Assembly: GCF_048403405.1 (NCBI RefSeq)
Contig: NZ_CP183129.1
Length of the DNA stretch: 64,000 nt
Source: Escherichia coli
GTDB lineage: Bacteria > Pseudomonadota > Gammaproteobacteria > Enterobacterales > Enterobacteriaceae
Reading direction: 5' to 3' (one strand)
Below, piece by piece: positions 49,701-58,700 of this stretch (position 1 is its first letter; every line of letters begins with the position of its first letter). Made by a program: the position numbers.

Positions 49701-52700
49701 TCATCCACGTTAAGACATAAGCCTGAAGCGTGGTGATCACGCCCACCATACAGGTGAAGATCAGGCTGTGTTTGACGGTAAAGCGGAACAGATCTGACTC
49801 TTTGCCTACCAGGCCTACCGCCGCACAGGCGATAGCGATAGATTGCGGAGAGATCATCTTACCGGTGACACCACCGGTGGTGTTGGCGGCAACCAACAAC
49901 AGGTCAGAAACGCCAATTTGTTGTGCTGCAGTGGCTTGCAGCGCAGCGAACAGGGCGTTAGATGAGGTATCCGATCCGGTCAGGAAGACACCAAGCCAGC
50001 CGAGGAACGGCGAGAAGAAGGTGAATGCATGGCCGGTGTGCGCCAGTGCCAGCGCCAGCGTTGATGATAGTCCGGAATAGTTCGAGATAAAGGCGAACGC
50101 CAGCACCATACCGATGGAGTAGATAGGCAGAGCCAGTTCTTTCAGCGTGCTGCCGAAGGTGCTGATAGCGTCAGATGGTTTCATCTTCAGCCAGACAATC
50201 GAGAGCAGGGCAGCAAAAAGAATGGCGGTACCGGTGGCAGAGAACCAGTCGAACTTAAACACGGCGGCATACGCTGTCGCTTCGCTGACCACTGGCGGCA
50301 TACGGGCAACCAGTTTATCGAGGTACGGCACCGGAATATTGATCACCCATTCATACAGCGCACCACCCGAAGCGAACAGGGCTTTAAACGGCGGGATGCT
50401 CCACAGTGTAACGGTAGCGGTCAGGAACAGGAACGGTGTCCAGGCACGTAACACCTGACCCGCAGTGTAACCGGTGTGGGCCAGCGTCATATCAACCTGT
50501 GACGCCCCCAAATCACCAAAACGGAATACGCGCACTGGCTGCCAGCGTTTGAGGAACAGCGTCAGGCAGAGCAGTGATACCAGTGAAGAGATAATGTCCG
50601 GCAGCTCCGGCCCAATGAAGTTAGAGCTGAGGTATTGAGCAATGGCAAACGAACCACCTGCAACCACGACCGCAGGCCACGTTTCTTTGATTCCGCGCCA
50701 ACCGTCCATAATCGCCATGATCCAGAACAGCACGATAATGGTCATAAACGGCAGCTGACGCCCCACCATCTGACCAATCTCAAAGCTGTCGATGCCTGTT
50801 ACCTGCCCGGCGACCAGAATCGGAATGCCCATCGCGCCAAATGCCACTGGCGCGGTGTTAACAATCAGGCACAGTCCGGCGGCGTAGAGTGGTTTAAAGC
50901 CCAGACCGACCAGCAATGCGGCGGTAATTGCTACCGGAGCGCCAAAGCCTGCGGCTCCTTCAAGGAAAGCGCCGAAACAGAAACCGACGATCAGCATTTG
51001 CAGGCGCTGGTCAGGGGTTATCGAAAGAATAGACGAGCGGATGATGTCAAACTGCCCGGTTTTCACCGAGATCTTATAGACGAACACTGCCGCAATAATG
51101 ATCCACGCGATGGGCCACAAACCGTAGAAGAAGCCATAAATCACCGAGGCCAGCGCGTTAGCGACCGGCATTTTATAGAACAGCAAAGCCACGGCAAGGG
51201 CGATTGCCACCGTCCATGAGGCGGCGACATAACCTTTGAGTTTGAGCTTAATCAGCGCAAAGAAGAAAAACAGGATGGGAAGCGATGCTATCAGACTGGA
51301 AAGCCAGATATTCCCGGCGGGATCGTAGTTTTGTTGCCAGAGATTCATTGCAGGTCTCCTGGAGTCCACGCACATCGTGTAATGAGTCTGATGCTCATCT
51401 CCTTGTCACACGTTGTGTAAAAGTGGTACTGCCAATTGTGTTGTGTAGGGATAATGACAATGAATGGTTAACTAAATGTTATGTATTGGCAACATCGATG
51501 TGAGTTTTAATTGGAGTTCTGTGAACCAGAGGTCAGATAAGCGAAGAATTGGTAGGGCCAATTCTTCGTGGAGGGAGATGTCTGGTAAAGAAAAGGGCAA
51601 TCCTCATCAGAGAATTGCCCTTAGTCACACTAAGTTAATGGATCATTACCACTGAATACCGGCACCGAGTGCGGCGGAGTATTCACCCTGGCTATTGGTA
51701 CTACCTTGTAATTTGTAGACCCAACGACCATTGGCGCTCACCATCGACACACCTAAAGCAACAGCCGATTCACCGTTGTAAGTACCGCCACCAATAGAGG
51801 CCATACTGGCACCTGGAGTGTAAGCCTGCGGCAGACCGGTCATTGCCATTGCAGAAGCGATACCACCGCTCAACTTGCTTTCGGTTTTGGACAGTTTGTT
51901 ATCCATCTCAACCATCCGCTGATCGGTGTATTGCTTCGTTTCCTGCACGCTTTGCTTCAACTGCGCATAGTTCACTGCGTCGTTGTTGTTCACGCCAGCG
52001 GAGACGTTGCTGATGCGAGTCGTACCGCCATTACCACCACCGAGAGTGATGTTGCTGTAGTCTATAGAACCATCAGCTTTGGTGTCGTAACGAACGCCGC
52101 CTGCCTCAGAAGACTTCAGCTGCGAAACGTTAACCGCATCGGTGGCATTAACACCTGCAGCAACGTTGGTGATACGACGCTGGTTGGTAGAAGAACCCAC
52201 AGAGATGGTGTTTTCTTCGTTGGCCACGGAACCGGTACCCAGCGCGACGCTGTTGTCAGCGGCAGCAATGGAACCAGAACCAATTGCAACACTGTCTTTA
52301 CCCTGCGCGTTGGCATCTACGCCATCGGTGTTGGTCTTGAAGTATTTGGTGCTACCGGTGGTTACGATATCGCCAATGCCGTTTTCGATATTGGTAACGC
52401 GAGTATCCAGATTCGTCACCTGATTGTTCAGGTTAGTAATGCTCTGGGTATTCTGGGAAACCTGCGCGTCCGTTACTTTCAACTGACCCACGTTAACCGC
52501 ATCGGTATCAGCCGAACCAGCCGCGACGTTGGTGATCTGACGTTGACCGTCTTCACTGCCGACAGAGAACTCACCCACAGAGTTCTGTGGTGCGTCCATG
52601 TTGTAGGCGGTGTAGCCAGTTTGAGCACCACGAGTCGTCTGTGAGCCATTACCCATAGCAATGCTGTTTGCATGGTTTGCACGCGCGTTGCTACCGATAG

Positions 52701-55700: not shown

Positions 55701-58700
55701 TATCACCTGCTGCCATATTGACAATTTGTCGCTGAGCTGTTGTGTTACCCACAGAAACAGTATCCGCGTCAGTCGCTACAGAACCAGCACCCAGAGCAAC
55801 TGAATTTTTCCCCTGAGCACTGGCTTGAGCACCAATTGCAGTGCCATTTTCTAAACCGGCATAACTGCCTTGTCCAAGAGCAATAGCATTTACACCACCT
55901 GTAATACTACCATTACCCAGCGCGATAGCATTTGCGCCGTCAGCTTTATTCCCTTGACCGATGGCAATTGCGCCAGCCGCTACTGCCTGACTTTGATTGC
56001 CCAGAGCAATCGTGTTGTCGACATCTGCAATACTGCCGGAGCCCAACGCGATACTATTAAGTCCATTTGCCTCCGCGTTAGTACCAACTGCCGTCGCATT
56101 TTCAGCAGCTTTGCTCTCTGCACCCATAGCAATCGCGTTTGCGGCGCTGGCGGCGGATTGTCTGCCGAATGCGAGGCTGTCTACGCCAGCTGCAGCACTG
56201 TTGCGGCCTACTGCAATCGCGTTAGCTGCAGATGCGGCGCTACTTGCACCCAGCGCCATTGCATATTCTTTCGACGCATTAGCCGTGGCTCCGAGGGCGA
56301 TACTCATAATTCCTAAGGCCTTGCTTTCACGTCCAAATGCGATGGCGTCATCAGCACCAGTCTCTGCGTGATCCCCTTGTGCAATAGAAAATTCACCTAC
56401 TGAGTTCGCATAACGACCAAGTGCGATTGAAAATCCACCCGTTGACGTTGCCGATGCACCTATAGCGAGGCTTCGCTCACCTGCTGAGGTAGTGTTAATC
56501 CCTAACGCCACTGATGCTTCGCCAAGCGAATGGGTCTTAGCACCGAGGGCTGTTGACCACCTTCCGTCAGCAGTTGAGTGATAACCTACTGCGGTGCTGG
56601 AGCCACCCCCGGTGTCTGTAAAACTATTTGCTTTTGCATCTTCACCGATAGCAACCCAGCCTGTTCCTGTTCCCTGGCCATAATTGACGCCCTGACCGTT
56701 GTCCCTTCCTGCCTGAGCCTGTACCCCAAACGACGACAACATTCCCCCAGCAACCAGGGCAGAAATTAACAGCTTACTGCGCCCGGATTTCTTGCCACGG
56801 CTTTTTGCCGTTTCGCTGGCAACGCTGTAACTGCCCGTCGCTGGATTCCAGATAACTTTAAAAATTTTGTTCATTATTGATGCTCTCTATTCCTTGATAT
56901 AAGCGCAGAAGCTGCATTTATTTTTTGTTTTTTCGCTGCCGAGTTTCAGCAGGTTGAACAGTGTCGAACTGGAGATTGGCCATATTGATGGACAACTTCA
57001 GATACTTCAGGTTATTAGGCGAAACGCCTTTTAATGTCAGATTAATGTCTTGCCATTGACCAGGCATTAATTGCAGAGTGGAATTCAGGGTGGTGTTGAA
57101 AAGTAATTGTTGCCACTTTGCCAGAGCTTTGGCATCGGCGGGTCTTTCATTGCCCCATGTCGCATGAAAGCCAATATTTGATACGGGAACGCTTAAAAGA
57201 TTAACCAGCGAAATACGAATAACACTGCCATTTTCCACCGCATCAATAGCCAGCACCCGGCCTGCCAAACCGACCGATCCGTTATTTATAATGAAGTATT
57301 GTGTTTGTGCTGGGTTAAATTCTGTAAAGACAAATTCGTCCTGCTTGTCTTTAACCGCTTTCACCACGCCAGCGAGCGTCTTGGTACTATTTATGACAGT
57401 AGTTTGTTGTTTTTCAAAATGTTCTATCTTGCGCTTATCGAGTTCCTGCTGTTTCTCAAGCGCCTCAATTTTGCTTTTTTGCAACTCTTGCTGTGTAACG
57501 AGTTCGTCGACCTTACTCGCTTTTTCAATATAGTCACACCCTGCCAATAAGCAGAGAGGCACTATTATTAACACGCTTAACAGTGTTTTCTTTAGGTTCA
57601 TAGGATGAATTCCTTTTCATAATCCCGATACGTTGATAATTACAGTACAATCATTTTTTTTATGAATGATTAGAGTGGGGCATATCCGCCAAATAAATTT
57701 GTTAGAGAATTTTTGTATTAATGGGTTGTGCGAATATGTTTTTAAGTGTCAAACAATTTTAGTTTGTAGCCAATAAATAAATTGATCGCGCGGATTTTAA
57801 TGATCGGTGTCAATCAATGTCAAATGTTTCACCGGATAAAGGCCCGGGGCAGGGAAAGATAAATATTCAGTTGAGTGATGTTTTATTGCGAATTTTGCGA
57901 TGCTGATAGAAAAATTTAAATAATTAATTATGTTTCAAGCATTGATATGCGGCAATTCATTGTTAATATTGATACATCATTCTTTAATTTGTACCTGATT
58001 TTCAGAATTTAGCCTGCTCCGGGCGCTCAGAAGTGTAGGTGGAGTTAAATATATAATGTTAAGAACGTTATAAATATTCGATCTCTACAACAGGCTCCTG
58101 CATGTGCCAGCAGGAGCGAGTAAATCGTGAGTGGCTGTAATTACAGCGACGAGAAAGGAACTTAAAACGCAGTCTTAGAGAACCCTGTCATCTCTTGTAG
58201 GCCCATTTCGCGGCCCAGCGCGGTCATTGGGTGCACAACGACCAGTCCGCGAACGCTCTTCTTCAGTTTGCCCATATCAGCTTGCTCTTTTTTAGTAATC
58301 GCGCGCTGGAACGGCATCTTCATCAGCTTCTGTGCTTCCTTACTGAGTTTCTGGCTGTGAACTTCGCGCAGGCGAGCAATTTCTGCTTCCAGAGTGGCTT
58401 TCTCTTTTTCCAGTTCAGCATATTTGTCTGCGGCTTCAACCAGCGACAGATCGGCCTGCTGGTGGCGGATGGCGTCCAGGCGATCGCTGAGACGTTTGAT
58501 TTCGTTTTTTTCGACTTCTTTCATGTGATGGCTTCTGATAAAGATAAATTTATAGCCCCTAGTATGCGCGACCAGGTGCTTTGTTCACAACTGATGACAT
58601 TGCAATAGTTCTATAACGTAAACATTAACATGCTTAAAAACTACGCAATTTATTGATTAATTAAGAAATTTAAAGAAAAAAGATAGTTAATAGAAACGGA

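Follow-up and report, generated by a model that had tools for sequence, protein, structure and literature searches.

The window analysed here, a stretch of 64,000 nucleotides from Escherichia coli strain MS 69-1, harbours, in the interval separating the lld and mtl operons, a locus flanked by lldP (49693-51375, minus strand) and yibL (58162-58524, minus strand). The initial annotation had placed a 1742-aa adhesin between these two genes, at 51646-56874. An open reading frame of this length was confirmed there on the minus strand, with an ATG start and the domains of a trimeric autotransporter adhesin (TAA), although it does not adjoin yibL, as a 227-aa SadB-type gene intervenes. This lipoprotein gene was not mentioned in the initial annotation. 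The features of the locus are as follows.

51593-51622, minus strand: terminator-like hairpin, 13-bp stem and T-rich tail, 24 nt past the adhesin stop codon
51646-56874, minus strand: trimeric autotransporter adhesin gene, 1742 aa, ATG start (open reading frame)
51646-51831, minus strand: C-terminal YadA-type membrane anchor, aa 1682-1742 (Pfam PF03895, E 2.7e-19)
53488-54375, minus strand: three longer related modules of 99, 100 and 97 aa (300-bp period x2, 81%; unit identities)
54376-55512, minus strand: five short DALL-neck-coiled-coil modules, variable in copy number (TRF, unit identities, SadA DALL alignment), delimited by the LLW register as the five units below
55279-55512, minus strand: short unit 1, 78 aa, 234 bp
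55072-55278, minus strand: short unit 2, 69 aa, 207 bp
54844-55071, minus strand: short unit 3, 76 aa, 228 bp
54610-54843, minus strand: short unit 4, 78 aa, 234 bp
54376-54609, minus strand: short unit 5, 78 aa, 234 bp
55402-56723, minus strand: head-coding part with YadA-like repeats, particular to the present allelic class (YadA_head matches; no megablast match of this DNA to CFT073 upaG)
56731-56874, minus strand: extended signal peptide region (ESPR), aa 1-48 (Pfam PF13018, E 2.1e-15)
56918-57601, minus strand: sadB homologue, predicted inner-membrane lipoprotein of 227 aa (PDB 4c47, SadB)
57794-57823, minus strand: candidate sigma-70 promoter, TTGACA-18-TAAAAT, 11/12 (consensus scan only)

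The adhesin was profile-scanned against Pfam in two overlapping parts. Besides the ESPR and the anchor, the scans revealed YadA_head repeats at aa ~90-377 and, summed over both parts, 16 YadA_stalk matches along the protein. A PDB sequence search matched the Hia anchor structures 3emo and 2gr7 to aa 1655-1742 and also found the SadA constructs 2yo0 (E 2.6e-135) and 2yo3. The protein thus has the C-terminal anchor, the N-terminal signal peptide and the passenger of head, neck and coiled-coil stalk that are expected of a TAA. In an NCBIfam scan, no model reached its curated cut-off and no EhaG/UpaG HMM was among the matches; the sub-threshold matches were to models of different TAAs, namely Ata, Vomp, EmaA, BimA and YadA. 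The identical protein is present on 51 contigs in a cluster look-up, in which the cluster otherwise offered nothing but uninformative 52-aa fragments, and in RefSeq the allele bears just the generic name 'YadA-like family protein'. Because of the Pfam domains, the SadA fragments in the PDB and the RefSeq annotation at the upaG/ehaG locus, the assignment of this open reading frame to the TAAs is supported; it represents one allelic class among the positional orthologues UpaG/EhaG/SadA. Homology to crystallised trimeric SadA fragments suggests that the adhesin is a surface-displayed homotrimer.

A gap of 43 bp separates the adhesin gene from the sadB homologue upstream, and the two genes apparently form an operon. 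In the PDB sequence search the product of the sadB homologue matched the SadB structure 4c47 with an E value of 1.5e-70 over aa 23-227, and its translation contains the lipobox LLAGC22, in which Cys22 is followed by Asp at +2. A Pfam scan of the 227-aa frame gave no significant match, and RefSeq names this protein 'SadB/YajI family lipoprotein' or 'DUF3251'. The 560-bp region upstream of sadB is AT-rich (35.5% GC) and contains the candidate promoter.

The locus resembles those of characterised adhesins. UpaG of CFT073 (1778 aa) and EhaG of EHEC O157:H7 (1588 aa) are encoded at the same position, with sadB upstream, and have the same domain plan. In CFT073 the order is cysE-trmL-lldDRP, adhesin, sadB-yibL-yibT-mtlRD, and the flanks are collinear with the window at 93-95% identity. 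Over aligned columns the adhesin is 81% identical to UpaG of CFT073 and 79% to EhaG of O157. Its last 600 aa are 92-93% identical to UpaG and EhaG, and 92-96% over the full set of comparisons; its first 450 aa, which form the head, are 60% identical to UpaG and 64% to EhaG, and 55-68% across other allele classes. UpaG shares the 76-78-aa stalk module family, with spacings of 50, 76, 78, 78, 71, 71 and then 99, 96 and 97, but the adhesin differs from UpaG and EhaG in module number and mix. In Salmonella enterica, SadB, a trimeric inner-membrane lipoprotein, and SadA, a long TAA whose stalk has six repeats in a row, each 70-120 aa long, are encoded in an operon between mtl and lld (Grin 2014, PMC3953254). 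The sadB product and the stalk and C-terminal parts of the adhesin match these proteins (4c47; 2yo0, 2yo3, 2ynz, 2yo2 and 3zmf), whereas SadA, with 1461 aa, differs in repeat number and repeat identity. In addition, SadA is reported to be highly conserved within S. enterica (PMC7247748), in contrast to the very diverse alleles of E. coli. Position between lld and mtl, the upstream sadB and full-length similarity to UpaG and EhaG all mark the gene as the orthologue of upaG, ehaG and sadA.

The stalk had been described as containing about five near-identical repeats of ~234 bp at 54230-55400. Five short units do exist, but they span about 54376-55512, and near-identity in DNA is limited to units 3-5 (96-97%). 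Unit 2 is 89-92% identical and 27 bp shorter, and unit 1 is only 74-81% identical. Consistent with this, TRF detected 3.2 copies of a 234-bp unit (96%) at 54304-55050, together with a 207-bp period x2. At the DNA level the long modules share 73-84% identity among themselves and with the short units, and the longest exact match between modules is up to 134 bp. The modules align with the SadA DALL fragments 2ynz, 2yo2 and 3zmf. A predicted ladder of antisense frames was also found, with plus-strand open reading frames at 54263-54487, 54506-54721 and 54740-54955 spaced 234 bp apart; it follows trivially from the 234-bp repeats. There is practically no chance that these frames (e.g., 54334-55512, plus strand, 392 aa, and the ladder of 71-74 aa) are real genes, and we rejected them. 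In their favour there is only their presence as open frames in a mechanical list; against them, they lie entirely within a well-supported gene on the opposite strand, copy the repeat period and are unannotated by RefSeq in every fetched genome.

Repeat number was compared in the best 60 complete genomes by flank match, whose flanks are at least 99.3% identical and which stand against roughly 600 related genomes. Because ranking by the whole gene favours equal length, it was replaced by a two-anchor query without the array, which measured spans and was also applied to a spread sample across all alleles. The only allele-specific stretch of the gene is nt 969-1452, 5' of the array, with no such anchor on the 3' side. 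Among the 60 genomes, the anchor span was 5278 bp in 44 and 5251 bp in seven, and spans of 5272 and 5277 bp also occurred; the deviants in length (7/60) had spans of 4342 bp (two), 5485 bp (two), 5044 bp (two) and 5746 bp (one), with differences in exact multiples of 234 bp. Short units numbered 1, 4, 5, 6 or 7 in the extracted proteins, and the reading frame was always kept. Strain 50579417 differs from EBJ003 by a single clean 234-bp deletion and from EFF60 by a 468-bp insertion of two units plus a 3-bp indel, with 0 mismatches in either comparison, and NCTC10537 and LR-21-1, a pair with an EhaG-like allele, likewise differ by 234 bp. The expectation that repeat number varies was thus borne out. 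Equal counts among relatives together with uniform read depth, or a full-length orthologue at the K-12 locus, had been named beforehand as outcomes contradicting the initial annotation; counts differ among relatives, and the K-12-like locus has no orthologue.

These differences could in principle reflect assembly, with repeats collapsed or over-expanded in 'complete' genomes and an array that is in fact constant. Short reads cope badly with units of such length and of 96-100% identity, and the uncommon deviant lengths (7/60 of the best-matching genomes) are known from deposited assemblies. Nevertheless, we consider this explanation very improbable. Losses occur as well as gains, and all of them preserve the frame and proceed in exact steps of 234 bp. 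The 5044-bp form appears in two separate assemblies, EBJ003 from a human and 19KM1803 from a cat, and the 5485-/5488-bp forms appear in the distinct strains HYM1 and 266917_2, which are 80 mismatches apart. Where one strain or its derivatives were assembled more than once, the lengths agree, as seen for repeat assemblies of THO-008, for 2020N21-110 with its -15 and -24 derivatives, and for HYM1 with T-HYM1. Furthermore, module numbers stably differ between allele classes. Since five units are retained in 53 of the 60 best-matching genomes and re-sequenced or derived isolates agree, the array is polymorphic at a modest rate and not hypervariable.

Because the modules are 96-97% identical (up to 134 bp exact) and 78 codons each, they are gained or lost whole without leaving the frame. 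Breakpoints and module mosaics indicate that this likely occurs by unequal homologous exchange or replication slippage. Marker residues revealed that a two-unit block is duplicated in EFF60 and that the unit order is swapped between 266917_2 and HYM1. Both observations fit unequal exchange or conversion, and slippage and homologous exchange are indistinguishable from these alleles.

The adhesin had been called accessory and absent from K-12. The absence was confirmed: in a K-12-like chromosome the lldP-yibL gap is 371 bp and contains neither adhesin nor sadB, and Grin 2014 (PMC3953254) agrees. Homology to the K-12-like chromosome extends to window position 51624, so that the terminator-like hairpin is retained, and a REP-like filler of ~95 bp replaces the sadB-adhesin operon. 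The gene was matched in 4158 of 5426 complete E. coli genomes and is missing from about 23%; with a locus conserved across genera, 'accessory' holds only in the sense of loss. If the locus were instead a recently acquired island, its absence from K-12-like and about 23% of complete genomes and the strong divergence of the head region among alleles would be accounted for. We regard this as improbable and rejected horizontal acquisition, because the position is the same in CFT073, O157, ST131 and B-type strains, the GC content of the adhesin gene (~52%) is little different from that of lldP (55-56%), no mobility genes adjoin the locus and the K-12-like genome still has the adhesin's terminator hairpin, with the filler in place of the operon. 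Moreover, the position has been described as conserved in Escherichia, Salmonella and Shigella, with a deletion in K12 (Grin 2014, PMC3953254).

We therefore conclude with high confidence that the region is the E. coli sadB-adhesin operon, orthologous by position to upaG, ehaG and the sadBA genes of Salmonella, and that its modules vary in frame. From the family literature, Sec would export the adhesin via the ESPR signal peptide, and the C-terminal anchor would trimerise into an outer-membrane barrel, with the passenger coming out as a trimeric fibre. This fibre would carry an N-terminal YadA-like head, followed by the stalk of DALL-neck-coiled-coil modules and by more neck and coiled-coil segments. 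SadA has been modelled as 108 nm for 1461 aa, and rough scaling from this value suggests that each module may contribute ~6 nm to the fibre. The SadB homologue may enhance surface display, as SadB does for SadA (Grin 2014, PMC3953254). UpaG and EhaG adhere to epithelial cells and to proteins of the extracellular matrix and mediate aggregation and biofilm formation, and deletion of hns derepresses upaG (reviewed in PMC7247748, PMC12525524). Their ligand specificity cannot be carried over to this allele, because its head region is 55-68% identical to UpaG and EhaG.

It is also conceivable that gain and loss of modules are real yet selectively neutral, the repeats being a structural spacer whose number drifts without functional effect. 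We give this nearly an even chance. Most close relatives keep five units, deletion of upaG caused no significant drop in mouse bladder colonisation (PMC12525524), and the papers covered contain no phenotype data that tie length to function in UpaG, EhaG or SadA; a search on UpaG tandem repeats likewise found nothing specific. Against neutrality, LPS and fimbriae mask SadA function (PMC7247748), so reach could matter. By analogy, length may also matter as it does in Cha of Haemophilus cryptic genospecies and in YadA, where stalk repeat number changes how the protein adheres or has to fit spatially with other structures and machines of the surface (PMC9704523). Stalk variation through recombination has likewise been reported for BadA with long reads (PMC8859334). 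The adhesin resembles these proteins in that in-frame gain and loss of stalk repeats alter fibre length; the organisms and repeat types are different.

Periscope Proteins have stalk repeats of high DNA identity, undergo intragenic recombination and project a distal binding domain to a variable extent (Whelan 2021, PMC8201768). The class consists of monomeric rods, each a single chain of tandem globular domains, and explicitly excludes TAAs (PMC9704523). The adhesin is not a monomeric rod of individually folding, high-identity domains, although its repeat number does vary among close strains (1-7 short units). As a TAA, built from coiled coils and connector domains, it is therefore an analogue of the Periscope Proteins and not a member. 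That module number is an adaptive, periscope-like length dial seems rather unlikely to us, and it is the variation itself that was observed, not selection or a phenotype. If it were so, lineages would gain or lose modules of ~6 nm and thereby raise or hide the allele-specific head relative to their own O-antigen, capsule or fimbrial layer, and SadB would hold the three chains in register despite the near-identical repeats.

The adhesin family, the locus, the K-12 deletion and the stalk repeats have already been published, and whole-module gain and loss is already known for adhesins of the TAA kind. The practical value lies in an allele class whose head is unlike those of the characterised UpaG and EhaG and which is hidden under a generic annotation. 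Both UpaG and EhaG have been put forward as vaccine targets. Because otherwise identical alleles differ by whole modules, no single length or sequence should be assumed in the typing of virulence genes, in vaccine-antigen design or in short-read assemblies. If fibre length is tuned to the surface layer, the Periscope idea would reach trimeric adhesins of a model organism, and the collection of complete genomes would permit testing of a correlation between length and surface layer.

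The adhesin gene encodes a trimeric autotransporter adhesin (TAA), and the initial annotation had placed it between lldP and yibL. The ORF and its position were borne out, but direct adjacency to yibL was not, because a 227-aa ORF intervenes. The genes (adhesin and 227-aa ORF from the ORF list; lldP and yibL as NCBIfam equivalogs) are as follows.

49693..51375, minus strand: lldP, downstream of the adhesin gene
51646..56874, minus strand: adhesin ORF, 1742 aa, ATG start
56918..57601, minus strand: 227-aa ORF, upstream of the adhesin gene
58162..58524, minus strand: yibL, upstream of the adhesin gene

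The mechanical lldP ORF has 560 aa, but its alignment to the 551-aa equivalog profile begins only at residue 10, so that translation probably starts nine codons downstream, at ~51348. In the adhesin, Pfam revealed a complete TAA plan.

aa 1-48: ESPR
aa ~90-377 and, further on, ~1225-1560: many YadA_head repeats
16 matches over two overlapping scans: YadA_stalk (neck)
final 61 residues: YadA_anchor

A PDB sequence search matched the adhesin to Salmonella SadA constructs 2yo0/2yo1 (E 2.6e-135, aa 1325-1590) and 2yo3 (E 1e-90), and also to the DALL-containing 2ynz, 2yo2, 3zmf and 2yny and to the Hia anchor. 2ynz and 2yo3 are DALL structures (reviewed in PMC7247746). RefSeq labels the gene at this position in other E. 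coli as ehaG, upaG or 'YadA-like family protein'.

The 227-aa ORF, overlooked by the initial annotation, lies 43 bp upstream of the adhesin gene and matches the SadB crystal structure 4c47 (E 1.5e-70, aa 23-227). Its lipobox is LLAG-C22, followed by Asp at +2; a Pfam-A scan of this ORF found nothing, and its RefSeq label is inconsistent ('DUF3251' or 'SadB/YajI'). According to Grin et al. 2014 (PMC3953254), Escherichia, Salmonella and Shigella carry sadB together with sadA as one operon, which lies between the mtl and lld operons. The same work describes SadB as a trimeric lipoprotein of the inner membrane that increases surface display of SadA 4-6-fold and makes it more resistant to protease; SadB may also help to set the register of the three SadA chains. 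A consensus scan gave, as pattern matches only, a candidate near-consensus sigma-70 promoter upstream of sadB (TTGACA-18-TAAAAT, 57823-57794, minus strand) and a terminator-like hairpin with a 13-bp stem (51622-51593), 24 nt past the adhesin stop. The yibL-sadB intergenic region (57602-58161, 560 bp) is AT-rich (35.5% GC). Because upaG is reportedly derepressed when hns is deleted (PMC7247748, PMC12525524), this could plausibly be an H-NS-bound regulatory region.

Tandem Repeats Finder detected a 234-bp unit at 54304-55050 (x3.2 copies, 96%), a 207-bp period at 54903-55315 (x2) and a 300-bp period at 53498-54090 (x2, 81%), with a 21-bp duplication nested within each 234-bp unit. With the recurrent LLW/LQW motif as the unit register, the stalk was divided as follows.

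55512 down to 54376, minus strand: five short units of 78, 69, 76, 78 and 78 aa
54375 down to 53488, minus strand: three long units of 99, 100 and 97 aa, after the short ones
54414-54453, 54648-54687 and 54882-54921: nested 21-bp duplications, each one coiled-coil heptad (ATNTTNI)

A tandem pair of 78-aa units aligned to 2ynz, 2yo2 and 3zmf in the order coiled coil, DALL, neck, coiled coil. The SadA stalk is described as six consecutive repeats of 70-120 aa with 55 to >90% identity (PMC3953254). Here, units 3-5 are 96-97% identical to one another in DNA (longest exact run, 134 bp). Unit 2 (69 aa), which lacks 27 bp and the nested duplication, is 89-92% identical to them, and unit 1 is 74-81% identical to the other units. 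Therefore, 'about five near-identical repeats', as first described, is an overstatement; there are five short units, but near-identity holds for three only, one being close and one divergent. A ladder of antisense ORFs noted at the same time is present in the ORF list (54263-54487, 54506-54721, 54740-54955). We rejected these ORFs as genes: they merely mirror the repeat, and no gene is annotated there in any fetched RefSeq record.

The suggestion that repeat number varies was supported. Since whole-gene search is biased, ranking equal-length alleles first, we used as query two 2-kb anchors flanking the array (52250-54250 and 55500-57500) and read the inter-anchor span, 5251 bp in the window itself, in each genome.

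Table. Inter-anchor spans in the 60 best-anchored genomes (anchor identity at least 99.3%)
4342 bp: 2 genomes
5044 bp: 2 genomes
5251 bp: 7 genomes
5272 bp: 1 genome
5277 bp: 1 genome
5278 bp: 44 genomes
5485 bp: 2 genomes
5746 bp: 1 genome

The large differences in this sample are exact multiples of 234 bp, and the 27-bp differences (5251 versus 5278) result from small 21- and 6-bp indels in the nested-duplication part of the array. Proteins extracted from these alleles are in frame, with one short module in strain NRZ14408, four in EBJ003, five in the window and 50579417, six in 266917_2 and HYM1, and seven in EFF60. In whole-gene alignments, 50579417 differs from EBJ003 by a single clean 234-bp deletion (0 mismatches), from EFF60 by one 468-bp insertion and a 3-bp indel (0 mismatches), and from NRZ14408 by a 936-bp deletion (24 mismatches). 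An EhaG-like pair, NCTC10537 and LR-21-1, differs by a 234-bp deletion with 8 mismatches. These alignments show that the gains and losses are recent. Marker residues (HGTE/HGTD, VKDG/VTAG) showed that a two-unit block is duplicated in EFF60, and that 266917_2 and HYM1 have the same units in different order, as would be expected if unequal exchange or conversion had acted. Modules are probably gained or lost when 234-bp units recombine by unequal homologous exchange or when slippage occurs between them. Such variation is far from rampant: in 53 of the 60 closest genomes the array holds five modules, span is uniform within each of the sampled EhaG, O157 and ST131 groups, and where one strain was assembled more than once or has derived isolates, the lengths agree. 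With the 1461-aa SadA at 108 nm as the yardstick (PMC7247746), one module would correspond to roughly 6 nm of fibre. UpaG and EhaG function in binding to ECM proteins and epithelial cells, aggregation and biofilm formation (PMC7247748, PMC12525524), and LPS and fimbriae mask SadA function (PMC7247748).

The adhesin was also thought to be missing from K-12, and this is correct. In a K-12-like chromosome (L016; genes at ~3.777 Mb), the lldP-yibL gap is 371 bp. Homology to the window ends at 51624 and restarts at 58161; thus the hairpin at 51593-51622 is retained, and 51625-58160 (6,536 bp, the whole operon) is replaced by ~95 bp (L016 2825-2919) with REP-like sequence GCCGGATGCGGCGTGAAC... This agrees with the reported deletion of the whole sadBA operon in E. 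coli K12 (PMC3953254). A whole-gene search matched 4158 of 5426 complete genomes, and adhesin gene GC is ~52%, near that of flanking genes. The gene is accessory by loss in some lineages, not as a recent acquisition. The window is 100% identical to E. coli MS 69-1 (NZ_CP146675.1), the gene is identical or nearly so (~100%) in five other complete genomes, and the exact protein is recorded on 51 contigs (cluster look-up). Some strains have an inactivated operon (among the fetched loci, L005 897-6042 and L014 5650-6333): N24 has a frameshift in the adhesin, SCAID WND2-2021 has it annotated as two separate proteins, and the sadB of FDAARGOS_1302 contains an internal stop. In K_EC180 the span is shorter by 1 bp; since the gene match is still 5256 bp, the base may have been lost outside the adhesin gene.

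The CFT073 upaG locus is collinear with the window (cysE-trmL-lldD-lldR-lldP / adhesin / lipoprotein-yibL-yibT-mtlR-mtlD). By megablast, its flanks are 93-95% and the gene's 3' two-thirds 85% identical, whereas no match was found for the head-coding part (55402-56723, minus strand). The window's protein shows 81% identity to UpaG and 79% to EhaG. Over its final 600 aa, identity to UpaG, EhaG and ST131-type alleles is 92-96%, whereas aa 1-450 are just 55-68% identical to any of these sampled classes. From these identities, we infer that it represents an additional allelic class of the UpaG/EhaG/SadA positional orthologue, set apart chiefly by its head. An allele-class-specific head suggests that this binding part is under diversifying selection or undergoes recombination. 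Module numbers also differ in other classes; UpaG has its own module spacings (50, 76, 78, 78, 71, 71), and gene length ranges from 4320 to 5730 bp over all fetched loci.

The family, locus, helper lipoprotein, K-12 deletion and stalk repeats are all already published; the initial observation was thus correct and mostly accurate, on a known system. TAA stalks with variable repeat numbers are known from Cha and YadA (PMC9704523) and are also reported for BadA (PMC8859334). Periscope Proteins represent the general concept of recombination-driven variable-length surface stalks (PMC8201768); their authors explicitly exclude TAAs, yet point out the analogy (PMC9704523). What is added here is that complete genomes directly show whole modules to have been gained and lost recently at this E. 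coli locus, and that this allele class has an uncharacterised head, distinct from those of UpaG and EhaG.
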